From Candidatus Cryptobacteroides pullicola (lineage in GTDB: Bacteria; Bacteroidota; Bacteroidia; Bacteroidales; UBA932), in NCBI GenBank assembly GCA_018711725.1, contig DVHX01000014.1, positions 16,184 through 80,183 on the forward strand: a DNA stretch of 64,000 nt. The letters are read 5' to 3'. The notes below the pieces were generated by a model. The model was not told the DNA's origin. It did not search any database and worked only from the letters and a program-made list of their open reading frames with translations. Shown piece by piece: positions 2,903 to 10,121 of the stretch. The position numbers and the translations under genes are program-made. Positions within the stretch are counted from its first letter, which is position 1. The number at the start of each line of letters is the position of its first letter.

Positions 2903-3826
2903 TCAGCGCTTCAGCCGGAGTACCACCGATAACGGGAGGGACTTGCCGAAACTGTCGGAGAGGGCGAGCTCTCCCGTCTGCATTTCGCAGTCCCGTGCGC
3001 CTGCGCCCAGACCGAACGCCTGCCTGACCACGGTCTCTCCCATAAGAGGTGAGAAGCCGTTGGAGTAGAGGTTGAGCACGAGGAACGAGTCCCTGCGGGA
3101 GAGGATGCCGTTTATGGAGAGCATCATGTCGAACAGGCACTCGTCCAGTTTCCACTTCTCGCCGTCGGGGCCGTGGCCGTATGCCGGCGGGTCCATTATT
3201 ATGCCGTCGTAGACATTGCCCCTGCGCTGCTCGCGCCGGACGAACTTCATCGCGTCCTCGACCACCCAGCGTATGCCGTCGAGCCCGGAGCGTTCCATGT
3301 TGCCCCTTGCCCAGGTGACCACCTGCCTTACCGAGTCGAGGTGTGTCACGTCGGCTCCTGCGGCCTTAGCCGCGAGCGATGCCGCTCCGGTGTATGCGAA
3401 CAGGTTGAGCACCCTGGGAGCACGGCCGAGCCGGGCGGAGAGATCGCGCGTGCTGCGGTAGATGTATTCCCAGTTGGGCGCCTGCTCGGGGAAGACACCC
3501 ACATGCTTGAACGAGGTCAGCCCCAGCCGCAGCGAGAACTCCGGCCCGCCTCCCGGGCCGCCGTAGCGTATGTACCACTGGTCTTCGCTGCGCCTGAGAC
3601 GCTCCCAGGTGCCGCTCTCCTCCTTTCCGGCCTTGCCGAAGCCCGCACCGGGGCGGAAGCGCGTGTGCGCCGTCCTGAGCCACTCGGAGCCGTCCATGGA
3701 TTTAGCCCACAGGGCCTTGGGCTCGGGCCGTATGATACGGTAGGGGCCGAACCTCTCGAGCTTCTCCCCGTCGCCGGAGTCGACGAGCTCGTAATCTTTC
3801 CAAAATGCACCGGGAAATTCTGTCAT
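2903..3826 (-). CDS. Class I SAM-dependent methyltransferase (RlmI/YwbD-like)
   Basis: [17 protein letters not shown]-terminus, [15 protein letters not shown]-binding motif, IIMDPPAYG motif. Confidence 0.85.
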
Positions 3827-3831
3827 GGCTG

Positions 3832-3839
3832 CAAAGATA
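3832..3839 (-). promoter_or_regulatory. Bacteroidetes -7 promoter element TATCTTTG for the methyltransferase
   Basis: Exact TAnnTTTG match, 5 nt upstream of the ATG at 3826. Confidence 0.6.
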
Positions 3840-3852
3840 TTGATAAAATTGC

Positions 3853-3860
3853 TAACTTTG
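3853..3860 (+). promoter_or_regulatory. Bacteroidetes -7 promoter element TAACTTTG for pgk
   Basis: Exact TAnnTTTG match upstream of ATG 3894; implies the ORF-track start at 3825 is too early. Confidence 0.65.
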
Positions 3861-3893
3861 CCTTTCGGACAAACAATTATACTCTATATCATT

Positions 3894-5147: not shown

Positions 5148-5183
5148 GATCCGGCGTCCCCTGCGGATTCCGACCTATATCAG

Positions 5184-5220
5184 AGACGGCTGCGCATCTG
5201 CGCGGCCGTCTTTCGTTGTT
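5184..5220 (+). terminator. Probable intrinsic terminator after pgk
   Basis: Stem AGACGGCTGCGCA / TGCGCGGCCGTCT (one G-U pair) followed by a T-rich tract. Confidence 0.6.
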
Positions 5221-5261
5221 CTTGCTGCAAGGTGCAGGTTGCCGTTCAAGGAATAAATTTT

Positions 5262-5269
5262 TATTTTTG
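5262..5269 (+). promoter_or_regulatory. -7 promoter element TATTTTTG for the TPR/HTH regulator
   Basis: TAnnTTTG match 27 nt upstream of ATG 5297. Confidence 0.45.
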
Positions 5270-5296
5270 TCTGTCAGTCGATAGTCATGCAGTCTC

Positions 5297-6931
5297 ATGA
5301 GAAGAACAGCATTCATATTCGTCACCGTAATACTCATTTCCCTCGCCGCAAGCTCGTGCGACAGAGGTGCGTACCGGGAGCTCGCGGATATCGAATCCTA
5401 TGCCGCCGAGCGTCCCGACAGCGCGCTGCAGGCGCTCGAGAAGATAGATGCCAGCAGGATCCGCAGGGCGAAGGTCAGGGCCAGGTACTGCCTGCTGAAG
5501 TCGATGACTCTGGACAATAACCACATAGACGTGACGGACGACAGCCTGATAAATATCGCGGTAAAATGGTATGGCAGACACGGAAAGGCGGATGAAAAAC
5601 TAATGGCATACTACTATCAAGGTCTGGTATACCAGAACGCCGAAGACCAGGAAGAAGCCATGAAAAGCTTCTTCTTGGCCGGAAGGTCTGCCGGCAGGTC
5701 TACGGACAACATACAGAAAGGGCTGCTGCTCGATGCCAAGGCGGCAGTCTATGAGAGCCTGTTCAGATTCGATGATGCTATCGAGAACACTTCCGAAGCA
5801 GCAAACCTCTACCTTTCCGAAAGAGACACCGTCCGGTACATCAATTCCCTCTTGTCCGTATGCTCCGAATATCTGGCCTATGACGAACCCGCCGATGCCT
5901 CGAAGTTACTTTCCGATATAAGGAAATTCCGCCGGTCAATGTCGGACAAGCAGATAAACGACTACTATCTGATGCGCCTGATAGCATCCGTCAAGGATAA
6001 TGACGGTGTCGAAGAAAGCATATCGGCATACCTCAGGAATGTCTCAGACCCTACTGAGACAGACTGGGTAGCCCTTGCATACGGGTACCTCAGCACGGAA
6101 GAATTCGACTTGGGTCTGGAAGCCCTTTCACGCTACAGGGAAACCGAATCTGACTATAACAGCAACCCTGCCTACCTCATTGCCAATTCCAGGCTGAACG
6201 AACTGACCGGACAGTACAGAGATGCCTTCCTGTCCTACCGGGAGTATGCAGGCCTGTCCGACATGTCGGATATGGCAATATTTGAAAGTGACGCGCAATA
6301 CATCGAATCCATGCTGGAAGCCACATACAAACTCCGTAGCAGGAACCTGTGGATAGTCATCCTGGTACTCTCCTCTACTACTTTCATATTCGTAGGGCTG
6401 TTCGTTTCAACAAGGCTGAGACAGCTTAAAGGCAAAAGCTACAAGCTCGAAAAGGCAATGACCTCATACAGGGAACTCTATGAACAGGCGGAGGATGAGA
6501 AGAAAAATCTCCAAAGAGTCAGAAAACTTCCGGGACTTGAGAAAGAAATAAGGAAATCTATCGAGGAACGGCTTGACATGCTGAACATGTTCATCATCGC
6601 TTCATTGTCGAAGAATCTCATGGCATCGGCAACCGATGCCATGGACAGCTATCTGCAAGACAGGGAAAGATTCATATACTCCACCAGACTGTCTTTTTCC
6701 GCCCTGCATCCGAAATTCATATCGCAACTGAAGAAGGCGGACCTTACTGAACCTGAAATAGGATACTGCTGCCTTTACTGTCTCGGCATGAACGGGAGTG
6801 ATATTGCTGCATATCTCGGCCGCAAGTCGTTCTACAACGACTCCAACGCCATACGGAAAAAGCTGGGACTGAGCATGCATGACAGGAACATCAGCGGCTT
6901 CCTCCGCGAAATGATGCACAGTCTGGACTAA
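5297..6931 (+). CDS. Membrane-spanning one-component regulator: periplasmic TPR-like sensor, TM helix, coiled coil, C-terminal LuxR-like HTH
   Basis: Signal/lipobox (LAASSC); helical repeats such as AYYYQGLVYQN; hydrophobic LWIVILVLSSTTFIFVGLFVS; C-terminal LTEPEIGYCCLYCLGMNGSDIAAYLG...IRKKLGL. Confidence 0.75.
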   Translation: MRRTAFIFVTVILISLAASSCDRGAYRELADIESYAAERPDSALQALEKIDASRIRRAKVRARYCLLKSMTLDNNHIDVTDDSLINIAVKWYGRHGKADEKLMAYYYQGLVYQNAEDQEEAMKSFFLAGRSAGRSTDNIQKGLLLDAKAAVYESLFRFDDAIENTSEAANLYLSERDTVRYINSLLSVCSEYLAYDEPADASKLLSDIRKFRRSMSDKQINDYYLMRLIASVKDNDGVEESISAYLRNVSDPTETDWVALAYGYLSTEEFDLGLEALSRYRETESDYNSNPAYLIANSRLNELTGQYRDAFLSYREYAGLSDMSDMAIFESDAQYIESMLEATYKLRSRNLWIVILVLSSTTFIFVGLFVSTRLRQLKGKSYKLEKAMTSYRELYEQAEDEKKNLQRVRKLPGLEKEIRKSIEERLDMLNMFIIASLSKNLMASATDAMDSYLQDRERFIYSTRLSFSALHPKFISQLKKADLTEPEIGYCCLYCLGMNGSDIAAYLGRKSFYNDSNAIRKKLGLSMHDRNISGFLREMMHSLD

Positions 6932-6969
6932 CAGAGTTTAATATCCGCACATATTTGCCCTTATAAGAT

Positions 6970-7003
6970 ACTCCTCTGATAACAAGCAAGTTATCAGAGG
7001 AGT
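6970..7003. repeat. Perfect 14-bp inverted repeat with 6-bp spacer
   Basis: ACTCCTCTGATAAC-AAGCAA-GTTATCAGAGGAGT. Confidence 0.9.
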
Positions 7004-7160
7004 GGAGCATTGTACCGTATTAATTGGCCATAATTTTTTACCGCTATAAAATATTGGTTAACAGACAATTATATTGTATACCGGATATGAAACTTAAATT
7101 TTTGCAATGATATCACTATTTTCTACATTGCAAACCGAAACGAACAAAACCCAGACACCC

Positions 7161-8080
7161 ATGAGACCACCAGCCAGATTACTCTGCACGCTCCTCGCGT
7201 GCATGTGCGCGCTTTGCGGACTTTCTGCCCAGACGTCGGAGGGGACTACGGGACCGTGGACAGGGACGACTTCGGGGTCTACCCGACGCTCTCGCTGCTC
7301 TACATGCCCTCGGACGCGCACGAACTCTCGCTCGACCTCTCCACCTCCATAGCCAGGCCGACCTATACGATGCTTAACCCGTTCATAACCTATACCTCGC
7401 CCACGACCTGCACACAGTTCAACCCCGACTTGAAGGCCTCCAGAGACCTGGATCTGATGTTCTGCTACGTCCTGCTGGACGACTACATGCTGACGGTGGA
7501 CTACTGGTACGCCTCCGACACGTGGACGGAGTTCGTGCTGCCGGACGGCGACATGACGCGCAAGTTCACGGCCAACTACGGCAACAGCCACGACCTGTAT
7601 GCCTCTCTGCTCGTGTCCAAGAGCCTGTTCAAGGGCCGCTGGAACCTTTCGGCAGAAGCGGAACTGGACTACTCGTATGAATTCGGCGGGATAGAGGGAC
7701 GGCCCATAGACAACCACAACCTCAACTGGGATATAACCCTGAAGAACAACGTGGCGCTCTCGAGGAGGCACGGCTGGTACCTCGACGTAAAATACCAGTA
7801 CCACAGTGCGAGCTCCTGGGTGGCCTATGACGTTCCTGCCAGGCAGGAAATGGAGGCCTACCTGATGAAGGAGTTCGACAGGGCCTCGCTCTCGATAGGA
7901 GTGTACGGTTACCTGGTGCCCGAGCTGACCAGGAGCAAGACCTACGGCGACTACGCCTTCTCGATAAGCGACAGGAGGTATATCACCGGAGTGGTGACCT
8001 TCTCCTACACCTTCGGCAACAAGCGCGCCCGCGGGGTCGCGGCGCACAGCAATCAGGACATCGTGAACCGCATACAGTAG
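7161..8080 (+). pseudogene. Outer-membrane beta-barrel (OMP_b-brl_3-like) gene with internal deletion and frameshift
   Basis: Signal peptide MRPPARLLCTLLACMCALCGLSA-QT starts at ATG 7161 and stops at 7352; a different frame from about 7240 encodes a barrel C-terminal half (YPTLSLLY, RPTYTMLNPF, FNPDLKAS, VTFSYTFGN). Confidence 0.65.
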
Positions 8081-8127
8081 TAACTATACCGGCCGAGCGG
8101 AACTTACGATATGCCGCTATAATGGAT

Positions 8128-9255
8128 TCAGCCGCTATCCCGAACTGGGGAACTGAACGGCAATGCGGTCATATATACCGCAGGCTCGCCGGATCCCGGG
8201 TCTTCGGTAAGCGTGTACAGCGTGCCGTCGTCCGGCGTCACCACGAAATCGTAGAAAGGGGTGTCGGTCGCGAAGCATCCGACAAACTTCCCGTTCCAGT
8301 CATATACTTCGATTTCATCGGCGCAGTACCACGGATAGCCCTTGTAAGGCTTGTACTCGGGATTGTAAGGATTCAGCGAGACATATATGAAGTGGTCTGT
8401 CGTATATGCGTCGATTCCCCGGTAGCTTGTCCCGAGAGGCTTGAAGTTCAGTCCGTCCGGCGTAGCCTCGTATACTGGAGGTATGGAATATATGCTTGCC
8501 TCGTGAGACAGAGTGAAGTCTTTCCCAAGGCGCAGGATTTCAAGATACCTTCCCTCGCCCGAAGCGTATAGCAGCCTGTCTCCGTTTATGAATATGTCTG
8601 CATTGCCGGTGTAGATGCTTTGCTTTGGGATTACCGGGCCTGAATAATTGTCATCTATCCAGTAGTTCATTCCCCTGACAGTTCGCTCGGATATATTTAT
8701 CGCGTTGAGCAGGTTCTCCTTTCCGAATTCCTCTCCTATGAGAATGAAGTCCTGTCCTCCGGCCGGAACGAAACTCATTCCCAACAGCATGGATCCTATC
8801 CATTGCAGGTCGTACTCTTTCCATTTGTCATATCCTGAGCCGCTCCTGAGATCTTTGACGGCCGCGCATACTATCTTGGGCAGTTCTCCGGACAGGCTCG
8901 CATCGAGCATATACAGACTGTCTTGTCTGAGGTAGAATGAAGGATATGTGAACTCGAACGGCCCCCTTCCCTTTATTCCGAAAGAGCCGTCGCGTTTCAG
9001 GGAATCTCCGGCGATGTCGTATATTACAGCAACGGTATCGGGATAAAAAGACCGCATAATCAAACTGTTCCCTGATACGCATATGAACTCGCGTCCCATG
9101 AGGGCGTCGGCATGGAGTCTCGTGCCTTCGATTACGGCAGAAGGGCTTTTCTTGTCATGCTGCTCTCCGGCGCATCCCGATAGCCCAGTGAGGAGGACGG
9201 CGATGGATAGCGGAAGCAGTATCGATGATTTGAGATAAGATGTTCCTTTGCTCAT
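8128..9255 (-). CDS. Lipoprotein, TolB-like 6-bladed beta-propeller (BF3164-like)
   Basis: Lipobox GLSGC; GSFGIKGRGPFEF and IEVYDWNGKFVGCF motifs; lies directly downstream of NVEALA peptides. Confidence 0.7.
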   Translation of the reverse strand: MSKGTSYLKSSILLPLSIAVLLTGLSGCAGEQHDKKSPSAVIEGTRLHADALMGREFICVSGNSLIMRSFYPDTVAVIYDIAGDSLKRDGSFGIKGRGPFEFTYPSFYLRQDSLYMLDASLSGELPKIVCAAVKDLRSGSGYDKWKEYDLQWIGSMLLGMSFVPAGGQDFILIGEEFGKENLLNAINISERTVRGMNYWIDDNYSGPVIPKQSIYTGNADIFINGDRLLYASGEGRYLEILRLGKDFTLSHEASIYSIPPVYEATPDGLNFKPLGTSYRGIDAYTTDHFIYVSLNPYNPEYKPYKGYPWYCADEIEVYDWNGKFVGCFATDTPFYDFVVTPDDGTLYTLTEDPGSGEPAVYMTALPFSSPVRDSG

Positions 9256-9497
9256 ATGCGCTGGGCGTTACTTATACTAAAATAGTGCAATGAACCGTCT
9301 ACATAGCCGATCTGCACTTCACAGACTTGTCCTGGTACTTCAATGCACGGTAGGACATATTGTCCTTCTCCATTGGTCAATGCCTCTATATTGGCATTGA
9401 GAATAGGGTCTATATTGTTGTCGACCTTGCAATTAATTAAGATTAAAGCGCCTATCACCGTCAATGTGGCTGTAAGGGATATCAAGAATCGTTTCAT
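9252..9497 (-). CDS. NVEALA-family small secreted peptide (81 aa)
   Basis: Basic N-terminus plus hydrophobic helix, NANIEALTNGE motif, C-x7-C; 4-bp overlap with the propeller gene. Confidence 0.8.
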   Translation of the reverse strand: MKRFLISLTATLTVIGALILINCKVDNNIDPILNANIEALTNGEGQYVLPCIEVPGQVCEVQIGYVDGSLHYFSISNAQRI

Positions 9498-9503
9498 GGC
9501 TTT

Positions 9504-9779
9504 TTAACGTGCATAGTAAACATTTATTGCATCGGGTAACCTGAACTTATGGTAAGACCCGTCTCCATAGTATGCATTTATCAAGCATTCTGATCCGGCC
9601 ATATAAATGCAATCAACCTCTAAATCAGCCTCACCACTGGCAAGAGCTTCGACATTCTCTGAGAAATAATACCCGCCTGTGATATGGTTCTTGCTTGAGA
9701 GATTAAGGGTAACGAAAAGTGACGCAGCTATTGATAATATGCCGATAGCTGTAATAAGATAAAATAGATTCTTCTTCAT
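9504..9779 (-). CDS. NVEALA-family small secreted peptide (91 aa)
   Basis: MKK plus hydrophobic helix, ENVEALASGE motif, C-x7-C. Confidence 0.85.
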   Translation of the reverse strand: MKKNLFYLITAIGILSIAASLFVTLNLSSKNHITGGYYFSENVEALASGEADLEVDCIYMAGSECLINAYYGDGSYHKFRLPDAINVYYAR

Positions 9780-9795
9780 GGTTAGTTGTTTTTCT

Positions 9796-9827
9796 CAAAG
9801 GTATCATATTTTTTTTTGAAATACAAT
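9796..9827 (-). promoter_or_regulatory. Promoter of the NVEALA operon: ATTG-N20-TACCTTTG
   Basis: Exact -7 element at 9796-9803 and a -33-like ATTG at 9824-9827; spacer contains a 9-nt homopolymer. Confidence 0.6.
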
Positions 9828-10091
9828 AGTTTATACATCAGATGAAGTGATTTGGAAGATACAGGCTGTCGTCTTGCCCACATAGATGAAAGAAATCCGG
9901 GACGGCAGGTTTCACAGGAACGGCCCTGGAAGTTACAGCTGGACATATCCATATCTTCTGGCAAGTCGTTGTTCCCTGATATTCCGCGGCTCCTTTCTGC
10001 AAAACACCTTCCACGCCAGTGGCCATTGGGTGAATAAATCCCGTTCTGAAGTAATCCTGCATGGTCCTGCCGGATATCATGTAATAATTGC

Positions 10092-10099
10092 TATCTTTG
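10092..10099 (+). promoter_or_regulatory. -7 promoter element TATCTTTG for lgt
   Basis: Exact TAnnTTTG match 22 nt upstream of ATG 10122. Confidence 0.6.
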
Positions 10100-10121
10100 C
10101 AGTCTTGAAACTTATGCGCCT

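Follow-up and report, generated by a model that had tools for sequence, protein, structure and literature searches.

A tandem pair of NVEALA-type hairpin precursors with a probable propeller lipoprotein partner in Candidatus Cryptobacteroides pullicola

We analyzed a 64,000-nucleotide (nt) stretch of the Candidatus Cryptobacteroides pullicola genome (GenBank assembly GCA_018711725.1, contig DVHX01000014.1, positions 16,184 to 80,183 of the forward strand). This whole stretch is called the window here, and positions are counted from its first letter. The analysis centered on two short open reading frames (ORFs), A and B, and on the lipoprotein gene that follows them. Judged from their sequences and those of their relatives, A and B very probably encode exported mini-proteins of the NVEALA family, with the propeller lipoprotein as their cognate partner. 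The three genes are the following.

9504-9779, minus strand: gene A, ORF of 91 amino acids (aa), NVEALA-type precursor
9252-9497, minus strand: gene B, ORF of 81 aa, NVEALA-type precursor with the motif NIEALTNGE
8128-9255, minus strand: propeller lipoprotein, 375 aa, lipobox LSGC, NHL/TolB-like beta-propeller, predicted to be six-bladed

Positions 9252-9779 correspond exactly to ORFs A and B, placed in tandem on the minus strand. Protein A starts with MKK and an apolar helix of 21 residues, followed by a 16-residue linker, the motif NVEALASGE (NVEALA being residues 42 to 47), and a core of the form C57-x7-C65-x7-DGS. It ends in a C-terminal tail (...NVYYAR) that B does not have. The core of B, which follows its NIEALT motif (residues 36 to 41), is likewise C-x7-C-x7-DGS. 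The stop codon of A is separated from the start of B by 6 nt, and the stop codon of B overlaps the ATG of the lipoprotein gene by 4 nt (ATGA); A, B, and the propeller lipoprotein gene thus form one compact operon. An earlier note, made from the letters of the window alone, had reported that the two NVEALA stretches align without gaps, with the exact spacing GE-x6-C-x7-C-x7-DGS-x-H-x-F-x4-A and mostly different residues in between. These observations were confirmed: the spacing can be read directly from both sequences, and the 43-residue stretches quoted there align gaplessly with 17 identities. The majority of nonscaffold residues do differ. The gapless alignment begins at N[VI]EAL and extends through the whole core. 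Over their full lengths, A and B are 31% identical (E = 3e-11 [by BLASTP]), with gaps only in the N-terminal hydrophobic and linker part. The cores downstream of GE share 11 of 34 ungapped positions, a level that was reached in none of 200,000 shuffles.

Both genes were intact in six contigs from related strains, and gene callers had missed or miscalled B in five of these six. Public gene calls drop or truncate the B-type gene, with its frame intact, in most of the loci L001, L003 to L006, and L033. Small genes of the hairpin type are systematically underannotated. Given their integrity in related strains and the low ratios of nonsynonymous to synonymous differences between strains (pN/pS, 0.17 for A and 0.10 for B; 0.25 for the propeller), we consider A and B to be real, constrained genes.

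The sole family match of A and B is Pfam PF14055 ("NVEALA protein", unknown function), whose name-giving motif is N.EAL..GE. The genome contains six NVEALA-type ORFs (A, B, and four others), all of which score below the PF14055 cutoff. For an independent test of membership, we compared the alignment of A, B, and their relatives with 15 PF14055 members that score above the cutoff in other Bacteroidales genomes. The two profiles aligned with a probability of 99.0% (E = 3.8e-18 [by hhalign]) over 64 columns, spanning the helix, the linker, NVEAL, GE, and the first Cys pair. The A/B profile also retrieved a PF14055-annotated protein (P0023) with an E value of 5e-5. The layout is constant over 40 sequences: a median of 37 residues precedes NVEAL, the apolar run has a median length of 18 residues (range, 10 to 25; Kyte-Doolittle KD19, 2.1), and a median of 15 residues separates this run from NVEAL. 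These leader statistics agree with those of true PF14055 members, in which the motif lies about 37 residues in, after an apolar helix, in proteins of 70 to 110 aa. On this profile evidence, we regard A and B as divergent relatives of PF14055. They share with its members the initial MKK, the apolar helix, a linker of about 15 residues, N[VI]EALA..E, a Cys-containing tail, and a length of 70 to 110 aa, as well as their occurrence in Bacteroidetes next to a TolB_like/DUF5128 propeller lipoprotein. Typical members, however, have hypervariable tails, whereas the A/B subfamily has a conserved C-x7-C-x7-DG[ST] hairpin core and, unlike typical PF14055 members, often occurs as several different peptides in tandem ahead of one propeller. 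Neither the peptides nor the propeller had a match in NCBIfam, PADLOC, or the PDB sequences. In two of the other NVEALA-type ORFs of the genome (C18:26888-27079 and C37:2275-2493), the N-terminal apolar helix is missing, and these are probably decayed copies. At least seven TolB_like propeller matches occur in the genome compared to only six NVEALA ORFs, meaning that some propellers are orphans.

Word-based homologue searches reached only relatives with at least 86% identity, which made an exhaustive profile search necessary. Such a search of 1.84 billion protein cluster representatives (E ≤ 1e-3) found only 26 matching clusters, nearly all of them 76 to 93 aa long with the same core. We counted core spacings in 27 sequences, 24 of which could be parsed. 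Both Cys residues were invariant across the subfamily. Seven residues separated them in 18 of the 24 sequences (eight in five sequences and six in one), and the distance from the second Cys to the turn was seven residues in all 24. The turn read DG[ST] in 20 of 24. The His of DGSxHxF was found in 8 of 24 sequences, with Arg in 7, and the Phe was not conserved. The conserved core proposed in the earlier note therefore stands for the Cys-Cys-DG[ST] part, which in these alignments appears as the signature of a rare subfamily, and falls away for the His and the Phe.

The proposed beta-hairpin was recovered in an AlphaFold2 (AF2) model of A that was built from a 25-sequence alignment. The model has a transmembrane (TM) helix at residues 3 to 31, a disordered linker, a short helix at residues 38 to 47 over FSENVEALAS, and two strands (57 to 70 and 76 to 86). 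The predicted hairpin turns at DGS with a predicted local distance difference test score (pLDDT) of about 87 to 92. Foldseek returned only noise for the peptide model (E > 0.8). A 2,366-aa VCBS/cadherin-like repeat protein from a metagenome (P0014) fits the NVEALA-hairpin profile in eight stretches, and its repeats read LNANAEALAGGE..TE.FTVTLSDGSTTT. We rejected it as a homologue, as it matches only NA.AL..GE plus the next strand, summed over eight repeats. The likeness probably reflects a shared local motif (helix, strand, DG[ST] turn, strand) and not homology.

The propeller lipoprotein was modeled as an all-beta, propeller-like fold (pLDDT, 88; predicted template modeling score, 0.85 [by AF2]), and its Foldseek matches were propellers only (among them Drp35, Brat NHL, and BVU_1028; template modeling score of about 0.5). 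Among its homologues, 10 of 16 carry PF15869 (TolB_like). In all seven loci with enough flanking sequence, one to three hairpin-type peptides in tandem are directly followed by a PF15869/PF17170 lipoprotein. In a propeller tree (n = 20) that included four paralogues of this genome adjoining other NVEALA types, the seven propellers found after hairpin-type peptides formed one clade (Shimodaira-Hasegawa-like approximate likelihood ratio test support, 99). This clustering was matched by none of 500 label shuffles. Since peptide type and propeller lineage covary, the propeller appears to be specific for the hairpin type of peptide, and we infer that it is the cognate partner of these peptides.

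The same gene order occurs in another species, with an A-like gene (P0010) followed by a B-like gene (P0017) and an orthologous propeller that is 57% identical to that of the window. P0010 is the closest orthologue of A and comes first in its tandem; P0017, the orthologue of B, comes second in loci L037, L038, and L033. The B orthologue in L033 is uncalled yet intact. Core identities were 54% between A and P0010 and 48% between B and P0017, compared to about 32% between A and B. B and P0017 also grouped together in a peptide tree (support, 94/79). As the peptide-only tree has 50 columns, too short for deep A and B clades, the orthology rests on best identities, gene order, and this grouping. 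Each gene is closer to its own orthologue in another species than to its neighbor, which indicates that the duplication is old. On these comparisons A and B are best described as an old pair and not as recent duplicates, and the idea that they are recent variants of one another is not supported.

In other loci, a single propeller is preceded by one to three different hairpin peptides, and none of 23 other congeners gave a hairpin-type match. The related loci repeatedly add a lipoprotein of about 185 aa with a CxxC motif and no Pfam match, as well as a Wzy_C/TPR membrane protein and an extra Peptidase_S26. No enzyme that modifies ribosomally synthesized peptides (radical SAM, YcaO, LanM, MNIO, etc.) was found in the window locus or in seven related loci; the latter contain only the propeller, the CxxC lipoprotein, S26, Wzy_C, and a transglutaminase-like protein. 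Genes of these kinds also exist elsewhere in the same genome. A CSTC (CxxC) lipoprotein gene lies beside an NVEALA gene on C16, and a second S26 gene lies inside an NVEALA locus on C29 (SM.PT and KR..G.PGD motifs intact, representing the Ser and Lys boxes), where a gene for a transglutaminase-like lipoprotein is also found.

The NVEAL motif had been likened to a leader-cleavage signature, and its position as the boundary between leader and core is borne out by locus L041. The three NVEALA paralogues at this locus (364-654, 3586-3864, and 5195-5464) have a DNA identity of 87 to 92% between the ATG and NVEAL and of 31 to 59% beyond it, and their upstream DNA is unrelated. One of the three cores is not of the hairpin type. 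In sequence terms this is a pattern of a shared leader with seemingly exchangeable cores, and it suggests leader homogenization or core swapping. The residue after NVEAL was Ala in 11, Thr in 9, Ser in 5, Ile in 1, and Val in 1 of 27 subfamily members. The putative AxA site reads A-L-A in A and A-L-T in B. It lies 10 to 21 residues past the apolar run, which is atypical for a substrate of type I signal peptidase (S26). A double-glycine leader was not found, as no GG motif is conserved in the subfamily and the leader is a hydrophobic signal anchor; nor does the island described below contain a gene for a C39 peptidase or an ABC exporter. We also considered B as a lipoprotein (LILINC) and rejected this, because the Cys is absent from P0017 and A and the residue at position -1 is an atypical Asn.

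The operon is part of a horizontally acquired island, whose further features are the following.

5148-10121, no strand assigned: accessory island of about 5 kb, inserted between pgk and lgt
9796-9803, minus strand: candidate Bacteroidetes -7 promoter box TACCTTTG (TAnnTTTG), 16 nt ahead of the ATG of A; consensus match only
5297-6931, plus strand: regulator-like membrane protein, 544 aa, named from sequence (distant BT3442-family match, 66 bits)
7161-8080, plus strand: remnant of an outer-membrane barrel gene (CarboxypepD_reg plus OMP_b-brl_3), left by deletion from an 802-aa gene

The island thus holds the regulator-like gene, the barrel remnant, the propeller gene, B, and A. In three genomes of the same genus, pgk and lgt are 12 to 170 nt apart. 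The GC contents of A (39%), B (41.5%), and the propeller gene (52%) are low compared to that of the genome (57.6%), and the orthologous cassette is likewise low in GC within its own GC-rich host. An equivalent candidate promoter box (TATATTTG) lies upstream of P0019 in L042. The bases ahead of the A-type ATG end in a conserved (A/T)TAAC in the window (9781-9786), L033, L038, and L042, which come from different species; this may be a translation initiation context. No conserved noncoding leader RNA was found upstream of A, where conservation is limited to the species and Rfam gave no match. A lipoprotein-type signal, a single TM segment, and a TPR-like region are recognizable in the 544-aa protein, whose C terminus is a LuxR-like helix-turn-helix (HTH); no Pfam domain scored above threshold, and the protein is linked to the peptides by position only. 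In the barrel remnant, only residues 1 to 27 and 525 to 802 of the L003 protein are left, in different frames (by tblastn), and OMP_b-brl_3 matches at model positions 151 to 407; the 802-aa gene is intact in the related strain L003. A resistance-nodulation-division pump (ACR_tran) adjoining lgt was rejected as a part of the system, since pump and lgt are contiguous in related strains and the pump falls outside the island.

The favored explanation is that A and B are exported NVEALA-family mini-proteins that form a module with the partner propeller, which is very probable by itself; to the explanation as a whole, with the processing and binding steps proposed below, we assign a probability of about 0.6. 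The precursor, of about 85 aa, would begin with a Sec-type signal-anchor helix, about 15 linker residues, and a short helix carrying N[VI]EAL, followed by a conserved G/N/S-E and an extracytoplasmic hairpin core of 35 to 45 residues around DG[ST] with the two invariant Cys. Sec would insert or export the precursors, and the core would be oxidized in the periplasm. Cleavage at the NVEAL(A/T/S) boundary, or close to it, would then release the core, an event to which we give an even chance; the S26 and transglutaminase-like lipoprotein of C29 and the CxxC lipoprotein of C16 could help in trans. Finally, the propeller lipoprotein may bind the mature hairpin as an immunity or sequestering protein, a chaperone, or a receptor. 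As for function, our leading guess, a tentative one held at less than even odds, is that the module is an antagonistic (bacteriocin-like) peptide with its immunity protein. A more specific version is distinctly unlikely: A and B would make up a two-peptide product, their hairpins joined edge to edge in one beta-sheet and cross-linked by the invariant Cys, matured outside the cytoplasm and recognized by the lineage-specific propeller lipoprotein.

Several observations weigh against the favored explanation. The PF14055 scores of A (21.6 bits) and B (14.0 bits) are both under the 27-bit gathering threshold, and the propeller scores 26 bits against PF15869 (cutoff, 29.2). Foldseek, PDB, and other sequence searches gave no recognizable enzyme or immunity homologue of the propeller, and the literature searched contained no mention of the NVEALA family or propeller partners in such a role. 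Both Cys lie within one extended first strand in the AF2 secondary-structure string, so that an intramolecular disulfide is not evident from the model; the invariance of the two residues makes such a bond plausible. The window locus has no accessory peptidase, oxidoreductase, or exporter. With an apolar segment of 18 to 25 residues and NVEAL about 15 residues further on, the N terminus resembles a membrane anchor more than it does a cleavable signal peptide. The Ile or Val after NVEAL in two orthologues fits a strict AxA site poorly and, together with the distance past the apolar run, leaves a canonical signal peptidase site insecure. The last three of these points suit an alternative in which A and B stay uncleaved as bitopic inner-membrane proteins (N-in, C-out), with the periplasmic NVEALA helix and hairpin docking on the propeller in a trans-envelope or regulatory complex. 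This alternative, which we find unlikely, also gains from the TM-anchor-like hydropathy of the apolar run (Kyte-Doolittle, about 2.1 to 2.6), the 29-residue helix predicted by AF2, and the purifying selection on the core, as expected of a structural partner. Against it, a dedicated extra S26 signal peptidase recurs in related loci, and one propeller is common to several different peptides. In addition, the wider family combines a constant leader with hypervariable cores, and its leaders are homogenized per genome, which is the pattern of precursor peptides.

The divergent fill of a conserved scaffold had been read in the earlier note as a sign of diversifying selection (pherotype or toxin variants). 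In a scenario of this kind, A and B would be recent paralogues with a surface under positive selection. The Cys-Cys loop does vary in length across the family, and all six nonsynonymous differences between strain alleles of A fall in the core, with four of the six within this loop; the clustering is one hint in that direction. Diversifying selection by point mutation is nevertheless unsupported, as pN/pS is at most 0.25 throughout A, B, and the propeller. Synonymous differences (pS) between strains were instead uneven, at 0.08 in the flanking lgt and OEP, 0.17 in A, and 0.53 in B. Comparing window positions 8128-9779 with L001, the propeller gene was a mosaic, with a pS of about 0.01 in codons 61 to 240 and of 0.23 to 0.39 at both ends. 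The propeller signal peptides of the window strain and L001 are unrelated. The uneven pS, the mosaic propeller, and the low pN/pS indicate that the variation stems from the exchange of diverged alleles by recombination under purifying selection. Combined with the separate orthologues of A and B, which make the duplication old, allele replacement leaves the diversifying scenario largely refuted, and we give it hardly any credence. Another option is that A and B are pheromone-like signals sensed by the TPR/TM/HTH regulator-like protein, with the propeller as a binding protein or receptor. The regulator-like gene does lie within the same inserted island, and Trans_reg_C or regulator-like genes are found near NVEALA genes in L047. 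Nonetheless, the association is positional, most of the related hairpin loci examined lack the regulator, no hallmark of two-component or quorum-sensing systems was found, and the partner that covaries with the peptides is the propeller and not the regulator. We therefore consider signaling through this protein very unlikely.

The favored module of exported peptides and propeller has partial counterparts among known peptide systems. Operons of class IIb two-peptide and Sec-dependent class II bacteriocins (lactococcin G and plantaricins EF and JK) have an adjacent immunity gene. Like the A/B locus, class IIb operons place two small precursor genes in tandem ahead of a coevolving partner gene, have a conserved leader and a variable mature part, and are strain variable and horizontally acquired. 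Unlike in class II bacteriocins, the A/B locus has a long signal anchor at the N terminus in place of a double-glycine leader and lacks genes for a C39 peptidase or an ABC exporter. Its partner is a 375-aa propeller lipoprotein, whereas that of class IIb systems is a small membrane immunity protein, and the number of peptides per propeller varies from one to three in A/B-type loci. Lipoprotein immunity of the LanI type is represented by NisI and SpaI, and PedC-type thioredoxin accessory proteins serve pediocin-like bacteriocins. NisI and SpaI resemble the propeller in being surface or periplasmic lipoproteins encoded beside the gene of one specific peptide type, and the likeness to PedC-type proteins lies in the dedicated CxxC thioredoxin-like lipoprotein of related hairpin loci. 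The folds of NisI, SpaI, and PedC are unrelated to a six-bladed propeller and no homology was found; a binding or immunity role of the propeller is inferred from covariation only. Bacteroidetocins, reportedly described by Coyne et al. in 2019, are peptide toxins of Bacteroidales. Like A and B, they are small ribosomal Cys-containing peptides of gut Bacteroidales with mobile or variable loci. They have a double-glycine leader and a dedicated exporter, whereas a signal anchor and the NVEAL motif characterize NVEALA proteins, and none of the searches made detected sequence similarity between them and A or B.

For the 64-kb window alone the result is modest: two unannotated or miscalled small genes are named and placed in a mobile island. 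The NVEALA family itself is already catalogued in Pfam. PF14055 scored above its cutoff in 6 of 151 sampled Bacteroidales genomes, with five to eight copies in several, and the P0023 cluster turned up in 363 collection blocks. NVEALA peptides and propeller lipoproteins are multicopy in a minority of genomes of the order, common gut species among them, and most members resist analysis because of their hypervariable tails. What is added here is a rare subfamily with a conserved hairpin, its conserved hetero-tandems ahead of one propeller, and a minimal form of three genes carried by a mobile island. With its conserved and modeled core, invariant Cys, one-to-one match to a propeller lineage, and minimal three-gene operon, this subfamily is a good entry point for studies of binding, structure, and antagonism or signaling. 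If the two-peptide reading were true, the hairpin subfamily would be the first branch, structurally defined and open to experiment, of a widespread, undescribed peptide-plus-propeller system that Bacteroidales would use either as a weapon with its immunity or as a signal with its receptor.

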